This document shows, in pieces, positions 40,008 to 60,921 of a stretch of 64,000 nucleotides of DNA. This stretch comes from Escherichia phage JEP8: sequence record MT764208.1; one strand, 5' to 3'. The stretch's first letter is position 1; each line of letters opens with the position of its first letter. The notes beneath the pieces are model-generated. The model was given only the letters and a program-made list of their open reading frames with translations, had not been told where the DNA came from and ran no database searches. Position numbers and translations under genes: made by a program.

Positions 40008-40766
40008 TTACTTGCAAACGTATTGGTCTACATCAATTGCTCCACCGAATGTAGGATGACGTTTTTCAAATCGAATAGTTCCGTCGTTTGGTTCGAAAAC
40101 GGAGTATTCATATAGATCTTTCTTGCCAACATTCTTATAAAACCCGCCTTTAGTCATAACGGTTTCTTGTACGTTTGCTTTGTGTACGTTGTATTCATCA
40201 ATGTATACAAAATCAACCATCTTCCCATTTTTAATTGTTACTTTAAGATCACCCGGTTGATTTCCATATTTGGCATACAGTGGCGCTTCTTTAATTTTTG
40301 TGGAAATTCCATCTTTCATACTCCACTCATAACGAACGGTGCATTGATAGGTAAAAGTTTCGACCTTCGGTTCTTCTACCACTTTTGCTTCCTGTTTCTG
40401 TTGTTCTTCTTCAACCTTTGCAGAAGTCTCTGAATCGCTTTCTGACGAGGTTTCTTCTTTAGGTAATACATTCATCAAGTTTTGGATTTGAGCGTTATAT
40501 ACAGCCTCCAGTGGCTGAATCTGCCCGATATTGATCATTGTATCACGAACAGTTTTATTCCAGTTTCGTTGCTCTTGTTTCAGAGACGGATCAATCTTAA
40601 CAGCCTTAACATACACTTCATGAAGTTTAGAGTCCAGTGCGGAGATAGACTCATTAGCACAAATAAACTTCTCTGATTTGGTAGTAGCTTTAGCGCAATC
40701 AAAGGACGCAGCATTAGCACCGAAAGCAGTAGCGGAAAGAACGATAGCAGCGATAATGTTTTTCAT
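40008..40766 (-). CDS. secreted DUF1311 / LprI-like (lysozyme-inhibitor-like) domain protein
   Basis: signal peptide MKNIIAAIVLSATAFGANA; then DCAKATTKSEKFICANESISALDSKLHEVY...QRNWNKTVRD typical of DUF1311; extra ~130-aa C-terminal domain. Confidence 0.55.
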   Translation of the reverse strand: MKNIIAAIVLSATAFGANAASFDCAKATTKSEKFICANESISALDSKLHEVYVKAVKIDPSLKQEQRNWNKTVRDTMINIGQIQPLEAVYNAQIQNLMNVLPKEETSSESDSETSAKVEEEQQKQEAKVVEEPKVETFTYQCTVRYEWSMKDGISTKIKEAPLYAKYGNQPGDLKVTIKNGKMVDFVYIDEYNVHKANVQETVMTKGGFYKNVGKKDLYEYSVFEPNDGTIRFEKRHPTFGGAIDVDQYVCK

Positions 40767-40800
40767 AATATATTCCTCAATGTTTTGTCTTGATGGGAGT

Positions 40801-40829
40801 ATCTTACTACTCCCTTAATCCTGTGTCAA
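40801..40829 (-). promoter_or_regulatory. early promoter TTGACA-N17-TAAGAT (GGGAGTAGTAAGATACTCCC type)
   Basis: upstream of the DUF1311 gene. Confidence 0.5.
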
Positions 40830-59508: not shown

Positions 59509-60921
59509 TTAGAAAGTCATGGTATTTGCTAGCTCGTCGAGTTTTTCGCGTTTCTCGGCTTGCTGTGCGCTTTGTGGTTTAACTTGTGCATTCTCCTGAT
59601 CTGCGATCTGGTTTGGTACTTCATACCAACGCTGATTGCCTTTCTTCACACCAACGTTAAACCGTGAATAATAGTTCTTATCACCGTAACGAGACTTGAT
59701 CTGCTTCATGAGTTGGACGCCCATTTTAGCCAGGTCTTCGGTTTCGATAACACCCAACATAAAGTCGGCAGTAGCCGGAAGACCTGCTGATTCAGCGGTA
59801 TCACTCATGTTAAGGTCGGAAGCATCCCAACCCGCGCGGGTAGTCTGTGCCGCAGTCCAACCAACAACATCCCACTTAACAAAAAATCCTCGCAGTTCTT
59901 CCGCAATCGCCTTAACTAGTGTGTAACTATTTTCAGAGTATACACGCAAGCGAGACGATGCGCAAATCCCCAGATAGTCAACAATCACAACATCAGGTTT
60001 AAACTGTTTCTTGAGTCGCAATTCATTCATTAACGCCTCAAAGTGATTGGAGTTCGCGCCACCAGTCGGATACTGCTTGATCATCAATTTTCCAACCGGA
60101 CGATCTCCGATCTTCTTATTCTTAACACGCTTCATGCGTGCGGAATATTCCGCAAAAGAAACATTACCATTATCCAATTCATCTAATGTAATGTCAAGCA
60201 AGTTTGCGTCGATACGTTTTGCTACTACATGCTCTGCCATCTCCATTGAGATATACAATACATCATAACCACATTCCATATAATCCGCAGCAAGAGAACA
60301 CAAGCCAAGCGATTTACCAACGTTTACACCAGCAAGCAACACATTTAGCGTTTTTCTTTCCGCCCCTCCTTTCGTGATTTTATTCAACATCGGCAGCTTA
60401 AACGGGATCTTATTCGCCTTAGTCTGATATAGCAAGAATCGTTTTTCAAAGTCATTAAACCAGTCATGACCTACATCAGAATCAAACGTAATGGATAGTG
60501 CTTCCTGCATGATCTCAGGAATAGCACCCTCACTCGGCAATTTCTTATTCTGTTTCTCTTTTGGTAGTTGTGCGTTCGCCTGAATCTCTAGCGCCCGTGA
60601 CATTGCATTATACATGGCACGGTCACGAATAAATTTTTCGGTTTCCTTCATTAACCAATCAAGGTCTTCCGGTGTATTCTCAAGCGAATCAAGAAGAGTT
60701 TTAGCCCCTTCATATGTTGTCTGATTGCCTCTCTCCTTGTCTAAAGCAATCTGTAATGCAGTTGGCGTAGGAATATTGGAATATTCGTCTACGTGCTTTT
60801 TAATCAGCTTATAAATCAGTTTTTCTTCGTCTTCGGTGAAGTAGTCCGCTTTAAGGTGAGGCCATACATTCGTAAAGAATGCGCCATTGTAAATCAACTG
60901 TGAAAAGATAGTTTTAATCAT
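59509..60921 (-). CDS. 41: replicative DNA helicase (T4 gp41 homolog, DnaB-like)
   Basis: 470 aa; Walker A GVNVGKS and RecA-like core; between 61 and uvsX as in T4. Confidence 0.9.
   Translation of the reverse strand: MIKTIFSQLIYNGAFFTNVWPHLKADYFTEDEEKLIYKLIKKHVDEYSNIPTPTALQIALDKERGNQTTYEGAKTLLDSLENTPEDLDWLMKETEKFIRDRAMYNAMSRALEIQANAQLPKEKQNKKLPSEGAIPEIMQEALSITFDSDVGHDWFNDFEKRFLLYQTKANKIPFKLPMLNKITKGGAERKTLNVLLAGVNVGKSLGLCSLAADYMECGYDVLYISMEMAEHVVAKRIDANLLDITLDELDNGNVSFAEYSARMKRVKNKKIGDRPVGKLMIKQYPTGGANSNHFEALMNELRLKKQFKPDVVIVDYLGICASSRLRVYSENSYTLVKAIAEELRGFFVKWDVVGWTAAQTTRAGWDASDLNMSDTAESAGLPATADFMLGVIETEDLAKMGVQLMKQIKSRYGDKNYYSRFNVGVKKGNQRWYEVPNQIADQENAQVKPQSAQQAEKREKLDELANTMTF

Follow-up and report, generated by a model that had tools for sequence, protein, structure and literature searches.

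We found that the gene at 40008..40766 of the window, by which we mean the whole stretch of 64,000 nucleotides from Escherichia phage JEP8 (MT764208.1) analysed here, encodes a predicted secreted protein of two modules, in which an almost invariant helical DUF1311/LprI-like module is followed by a polymorphic β-barrel. The barrel is exchanged as a cassette between virulent and temperate coliphages. By analogy with other DUF1311 proteins, our best guess, which we put forward as a possibility, is that the protein binds or inhibits a cell-wall hydrolase in the periplasm, the barrel setting its specificity.

The gene, its control signals and export of its product

The ORF is on the minus strand, includes its stop codon within 40008..40766 and encodes 252 aa in the JEP8 window. 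An earlier note, made from the DNA letters, had given exactly these ends and left the strand unstated. The gene is the homologue of RB49p262. The protein matched phrog_14799 over its full length (E 2.5e-154), homologues were present in 56 phage records at a coverage of at least 80%, and the gene is under strong purifying selection (dN = 0 at dS 0.08-0.21 in comparison with RB49 and TB34). These three observations together rule out a chance ORF. We obtained no match for the 252-aa protein in NCBIfam and none in a PDB sequence search with the whole protein; PADLOC gave no match for the gene or its neighbours. In Krischvirus, the gene is part of the early region and has small phage ORFs as neighbours, with gene 52 on one side of this group and the holin gene t on the other. 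The features of the region are as follows.

40008..40766, minus strand: complete ORF for a secreted two-module protein, RB49p262 homologue (homology and purifying selection)
40801..40829, minus strand: predicted sigma-70/early-type promoter (TTGACA at 40829-40824, 17-nt spacer, TAAGAT at 40806-40801)
40773..40778, minus strand: Shine-Dalgarno sequence GAGGAA, 6 nt 5' of the ATG at 40766 (sequence)
40710..40766, minus strand: Sec signal peptide, residues 1-19, with a predicted SPase I site between ANA and AS and no lipobox (sequence and conserved junction)
40473..40697, minus strand: DUF1311/LprI-like helical module, residues 24-98, with Cys24 and Cys36 (Pfam PF07007 and model helices)
40365..40466, minus strand: acidic linker rich in Ser/Glu/Lys/Gln/Pro, residues ~101-134, with predicted disorder; the variable cassette has its left recombination boundary here
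40011..40364, minus strand: polymorphic C-terminal eight-stranded β-barrel, residues 135-252, class A of at least six classes

The promoter has an A-rich tract 5' of its TTGACA, and its -10 hexamer occupies the loop of a palindrome, GGGAGTA-GTAAGA-TACTCCC, at 40814-40795, which we found in 4 copies in the window against 0 expected. The layout AGTTGACA-N10-GGGAGTAG[-10]ACTCCCAT is also present 5' of three other window genes, and the GEC-3S record has a promoter annotated at the equivalent place. As far as these motifs can tell, the gene has its own early-type promoter, which belongs to a recurrent Krischvirus subclass.

The signal peptide is MKNIIAAIVLSATAFGANA, followed after the cleavage point by ASFDC. 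It has an N-terminal Lys, a hydrophobic core without charge and A-x-A at -3/-1, and this region has low pLDDT in the AlphaFold model. The junction AxA/ASFDC (slash, cleavage point) is kept in remoter phage relatives, namely Klebsiella PWKp16, Aeromonas AP1 and the lambda-like ev099. The signal peptide with cleavage after ANA that had been proposed from the letters is thus borne out by sequence rules and by conservation of the junction. We observed no lipobox in the cleavage region FGANA/ASFDC, where the first Cys comes 5 residues past the predicted SPase I site and S-F-D-C does not form one. These features support the view that this DUF1311 protein of a T4-like phage is secreted and is no lipoprotein, and we infer a periplasmic location for the mature protein.

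The DUF1311 module and its functional analogues

Residues 24-76 matched Pfam PF07007 ('LprI') with 26.7 bits (E 7.7e-6; the gathering cut-off is 22), in an alignment spanning only profile positions 1-71 of 106, and most homologues carry a precomputed PF07007 match. The DUF1311 motif claimed earlier is present, with a spacing one residue off in places and with a Pfam score above the curated cut-off. In the AlphaFold model, the module consists of four helices (30-37, 39-58, 62-80 and 83-98; pLDDT 63-80) and is all-alpha, like the DUF1311 fold. We observed that the N-terminal module is ~99% identical across all relatives, with dN/dS values of 0-0.16 at dS 0.06-0.30, and that C24 and C36 are invariant across all of them. 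Conserved cysteines are reported for the DUF1311 family, and the four cysteines of ScwA are spread along the whole protein (PMC7933661).

A DUF1311 match in the RB49 homologue was already known and is not new here. ORF260c of RB49, which is presumably the homologue of the 40008-40766 gene under an older numbering, was listed with a DUF1311 match at E = 0.2 (Nolan et al. 2006, PMC1524935), and the UniProt name of Q7Y3G7 is 'Lysozyme inhibitor LprI-like N-terminal domain-containing protein'.

All the DUF1311 proteins with functional data or a functional prediction in our literature search were linked to murein hydrolases. According to PMC7933661, Mtb LprI consists of DUF1311 plus MliC, of which MliC is regarded as sufficient for lysozyme resistance, and the periplasmic Salmonella protein ScwA, having DUF1311 only, conferred no lysozyme resistance in the tests reported there. 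The earlier note had passed from DUF1311 to a lysozyme inhibitor; this step rests on the family name and is not supported as argued, since in LprI it is MliC that is regarded as the inhibitor, and ScwA does not protect from lysozyme. The label 'lysozyme inhibitor LprI family protein' likewise goes beyond present knowledge, which is a lesson for annotation.

The same paper describes ScwA as a soluble periplasmic protein that raises the levels of MltD and causes lysis on overproduction (PMC7933661). The JEP8 protein could, in a similar manner, modulate host cell-wall enzymes by binding or stabilising a lytic transglycosylase or another murein enzyme, and so condition the sacculus, for example in lysis timing or envelope stability. 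An invariant N-terminal module would suit an invariant host target, and the early-region position of the gene, with gene 52 and t on either side, is also in favour. However, neither the polymorphism of the barrel nor the presence of the family in prophages would be explained, and ScwA has a different architecture, being a helical protein of 275 aa with DUF1311 at its C-terminus (PMC7933661). We consider this role improbable.

The other group of DUF1311 proteins consists of immunity proteins. EHEC Etsi4 (DUF1311) rescues cells from the periplasm-acting effector Etse4, which is an experimental result (PMC12981562), and DUF1311 immunity proteins are predicted beside lysozyme-like or LysM effectors in Pantoea, in Salmonella Dublin, where the protein has 146 aa, and in WHIX loci (PMC9796082, PMC8867033, PMC12135965). 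Etsi4, the Pantoea and Salmonella immunity proteins and ScwA all combine a signal peptide with DUF1311, as the JEP8 protein does, and they are periplasmic and linked to murein hydrolases, as it would be. Immunity genes of the Etsi4 type adjoin an effector gene, whereas the JEP8 gene has none and encodes an extra polymorphic barrel. We found no cell-wall effector gene adjoining the homologues in any context, Krischvirus or prophage.

The barrel and its exchange between phages

Residues 135-252 were confidently predicted to form an eight-stranded β-barrel with two invariant cysteines. This half of the protein had been missed in the earlier note and is new here. The linker preceding it has pLDDT <50 at residues 104-132 of the AlphaFold model. 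The first strand contains Cys142 and the last strand Cys251; these are two of only three residues that are invariant in all the barrel classes. Their strand positions fit the disulfide site described for PhiA (PMC8334348) and ACP; in MliC, PliC, PhiA and ACP, a disulfide joins the first and last strands, according to the ACP abstract and PMC8334348. The barrel is probably disulfide-locked.

The modelled fold resembles the lysozyme-inhibitor barrels of PliC, MliC, PhiA and ACP, among which PhiA was the top match of the inhibitor families, although unrelated generic barrels gave equally good scores. It also resembles the ligand- or protein-binding barrels of the bacterial surface lipoproteins NHBA, fHbp and TbpB. 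A Foldseek search of the full-length model against the PDB gave weak barrel matches only (E >1e-3), and Foldseek also matched small phage proteins in BFVD, of which one bears the name lipoprotein.

By sequence, the barrel is an orphan in the searches that we performed. PF09864 (MliC) was matched neither by the whole protein, even with E values of up to 10 allowed, nor by any of 14 C-terminal domains, on which Pfam in general yielded nothing informative. The barrel profile recovered no MliC, PliC, ACP or PhiA from the PDB sequences, the sole hit being a chance PhoU-like match (E 0.0016), and from 1.84 billion representative proteins it recovered only its own family and repetitive junk, e.g. P0022. 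In the MliC/PliC family, the SGxxY motif sits on a protruding loop that enters the lysozyme active site (PMC8334348). We observed that this motif is absent in every barrel class; the nearest sequence is KGGFY in class A, which is not kept elsewhere.

The JEP8 barrel would share with MliC/PliC, Brucella PhiA and Neisseria ACP the eight-stranded antiparallel fold, without the SGxxY loop or detectable homology. The idea of a lysozyme inhibitor is partly revived by this other route, through a modelled PliC/MliC/PhiA-like fold, yet without SGxxY or an MliC sequence signal. The likeness extends to Mtb LprI (Rv1541c), which is also exported and has the same domain order, with DUF1311 at the N-terminus and then a small eight-stranded MliC/PliC-like barrel. 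LprI, however, is a lipid-anchored mycobacterial lipoprotein, whereas the coliphage protein is predicted to be soluble and has a long acidic linker and a polymorphic barrel, which differs from the MliC of LprI in having neither a PF09864 match nor SGxxY. PhiA did not inhibit lysozyme in vitro (PMC8334348), and by analogy the JEP8 protein may, like PhiA, have no lysozyme inhibition at all.

In contrast to the almost invariant N-terminal module, the barrel comes in at least six classes, deeply diverged from one another. Every class is conserved internally (in class A, dN = 0 at dS 0.16-0.21), and synonymous sites are saturated between classes. From these two observations, we concluded that the classes are old, discrete types. 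Conserved, discrete classes of this kind fit specificity types. Rapid ongoing positive selection on the barrel was rejected, as dN is 0 in class A at dS ~0.2.

In the Krischviruses, and equally in a lambdoid prophage that has hicB as its insertion site, the linker and the stop codon are the exact limits of the variable block of DNA. DNA identity with the prophage copies stops at nt 371, 379 or 408 of the gene, and among the Krischviruses identity falls at the same point of the linker. Versions of the barrel are common to Krischviruses and E. coli prophages. The hicB-inserted prophage copies were present in 26 of 5426 E. coli genomes, in which no prophage gene follows the homologue, its neighbours being a gene for a conserved 184-aa phage protein and the disrupted host hicB. 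A position at the prophage end is typical of accessory genes.

The edges of the cassette document the exchange of gene fragments between virulent and temperate coliphages. They are sharp, from linker to stop, in two unrelated phage backbones, which makes for simple domain swaps. They also offer a handle on the long-standing question of DUF1311, as nature here holds the module constant and varies only its partner domain.

The class of the barrel is also independent of the neighbouring genes. A two-gene cassette with the downstream p261, in the style of a toxin and its immunity, was rejected, as the two p261 alleles pair as A+E and C+D; the prophage copies have no p261-like gene downstream. We also rejected a matching of barrel class to the phage's own receptor-binding tip. 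The tail-fibre tips are mosaic and unlinked to class: GEC-3S (class D) has the tip type of the window, and RB49 and TB34 (class A) do not. Therefore, the protein is not adapted to masking the receptor that the phage itself uses.

These data bear on the alternative that the protein blocks phage entry without involvement of lysozyme. In the periplasm, its barrel would bind either a component of the envelope that varies or a protein of an incoming phage, and certain competitors would be excluded, much as by Cor or Llp. The barrel could bind an outer-membrane receptor from the periplasmic side, a periplasmic chaperone on which injection depends, or a protein of the tail tip or the tape measure. 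A polymorphic, exchangeable specificity domain common to virulent and temperate coliphages argues for such a blocker, as do the small phage proteins (one named lipoprotein) matched in BFVD and the resemblance to the binding barrels of NHBA, fHbp and TbpB. We nevertheless regard it as unlikely: barrel class is not tied to the phage's own tail-fibre tip, the protein is predicted to be soluble whereas Cor and Llp are lipoproteins, and the strictly conserved DUF1311 module would be left without a role.

The prophage copies and the old barrel types are also relevant to the immunity proteins described above. The gene could be an orphan immunity determinant carried by the phage and directed against bacterial toxins that attack the cell wall, for instance bacteriocins or the muramidase and amidase effectors of T6SS; both modules would then be immunity domains, and the barrel classes would match different effectors that E. 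coli encounters in the gut. Signal-peptide DUF1311 proteins do occur as cognate or orphan T6SS immunity, experimentally for Etsi4/Etse4 and otherwise as predictions (PMC12981562 for the experimental case). Immunity repertoires typically consist of ancient, discrete types, and the prophage-end position would suit a gene that benefits the lysogen. On the other side, an effector gene is adjacent in no context, T6SS immunity would be of little gain to a virulent phage with a short cycle, and the barrel has no PADLOC or other family match. Moreover, the T6SS DUF1311 immunity proteins of stated size appear to be smaller and single-domain (146 aa in S. Dublin). This role is rather unlikely in our judgement.

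Proposed mode of action and comparison with Spackle

The two-module layout would fit an envelope-protecting inhibitor, by analogy with the systems considered above, and we therefore return to the periplasmic binder of cell-wall hydrolases as the preferred reading. The binding, the class of target and the protective role are what we infer in the following scheme. The early promoter would supply a soluble periplasmic protein from the start of infection, and the mature form would comprise the invariant helical DUF1311 module, a flexible acidic linker of ~30 residues and the interchangeable barrel. Given its LprI-like layout, it could bind and neutralise a cell-wall hydrolase or other envelope attacker that arrives in the periplasm from outside, most likely through stoichiometric, non-enzymatic binding. 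Candidate targets are the lysozyme in the tail of a superinfecting phage and muramidase toxins of bacteria; in either case, the infected or lysogenic cell would be protected. The invariant module may contact a conserved partner, such as peptidoglycan, a protein of the host periplasm or the surface of an enzyme, and the barrel may serve as the exchangeable specificity module.

In favour of this best guess, we counted the signals, the promoter, DUF1311 with the murein-hydrolase link of its other members, the placement of the cysteines, the cassette edges, the prophage-end position and the background of gp5, endolysin and missing Spackle. Against it, we counted the absence of SGxxY and PF09864, the inactivity of PhiA, the lack of protection by ScwA, the invariant gp5 and the presence of both proteins in Marfavirus. 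The Spackle-related items of this balance are given below.

T4 Spackle (Sp, gp61.3) acts early and in the periplasm, by a mechanism described in PMC7677548. Both it and the JEP8 protein are early, signal-peptide-bearing proteins of T4-like phages. They differ in that Spackle has 97 aa, whereas the JEP8 protein has 252 aa (2.6 times larger), contains two domains, is polymorphic and is also found in temperate phages. The earlier note had called the two unrelated, and indeed no sequence similarity between them was detectable. When the T4 and Klebsiella-phage Sp proteins were searched by tblastn against the window and the whole RB49 genome, we observed only a spurious match in gene 41 (E 0.02-0.06). 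This Spackle-like match, at 59662-59856 of the window, lies within gene 41 and was rejected. In the slot between genes 41 and 61, the position of sp in T4, no small ORF starts with a signal peptide. As judged from these searches, RB49 is without a Spackle homologue anywhere in its genome. As Krischvirus lacks sp, a functional replacement of Spackle is conceivable.

RB49 gp5 carries a Phage_lysozyme domain, and the RB49 endolysin is a Peptidase_M15_4 protein. Since this endolysin is a peptidase, a lysozyme inhibitor would spare the phage's own lysis. Across all Krischvirus records listed, the gp5 lysozyme domains share 99-100% identity, and co-evolution of barrel class with the gp5 lysozyme domain of the genus was rejected on this ground. 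A simple model of the barrel acting on the phage's own gp5 is therefore insufficient, because the barrel is polymorphic and the Krischvirus domain invariant; any gp5-directed activity would have to reside in the N-terminal module or be aimed at other phages.

The specific proposal of the earlier note, which is a special case of our preferred reading, was a strict analogue of Spackle. According to it, the protein inhibits the gp5 of superinfecting T4-like phages, giving superinfection exclusion and resistance to lysis from without, and fills the role of the missing sp. The early promoter and periplasmic targeting, as in T4 Sp, are consistent with this, and so are the lack of an Sp homologue in RB49, the absence of a signal-peptide small ORF from the 41-61 slot and the combination of a Phage_lysozyme domain in gp5 with a peptidase endolysin that a lysozyme inhibitor would not affect. 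An invariant N-terminal module and an invariant gp5 lysozyme domain would also be compatible with a fixed interaction.

We nonetheless find the strict analogue rather doubtful. Besides the lack of detectable similarity to Sp, the polymorphism of the barrel would be unexplained when the gp5 lysozyme domain of the genus is constant, the family is also present in lambdoid prophages, and DUF1311 alone, in the case of ScwA, did not protect from lysozyme (PMC7933661). In addition, Marfaviruses have both Spackle and a DUF1311 protein, and the two are therefore not simple alternatives.

The preferred reading, a hydrolase binder with a specificity-setting barrel, may also be extended to a hitherto unrecognised family of coliphage proteins that give type-specific periplasmic protection, although this extension is doubtful and is drawn by analogy. 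The invariant DUF1311 module would be the 'handle' and the exchangeable barrel the 'head' that chooses which phages or toxins are neutralised; the cassettes would be traded between virulent T4-like and temperate lambdoid phages, and in Krischvirus the protein would replace the superinfection exclusion of Spackle. If it is protective, T4-like phages would have a second, unrelated route to a Spackle-type envelope defence, with swappable specificity.

The DUF1311 module is also combined with other C-terminal domains. Klebsiella Marfavirus PWKp16_00286, Aeromonas AP1_0296 and lambda-like ev099 gp35 have the same signal-peptide/ASFDC junction and DUF1311 module as the JEP8 protein, with 37-49% identity over the first 70-100 residues. 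They are alike in size (232-250 aa), and their second domain also has two cysteines, whereas these C-terminal domains have no sequence resemblance to the barrel and, by inspection, a non-barrel look. The families phrog_4675 and phrog_33858 may correspond to proteins of this PWKp16/AP1/ev099 type.

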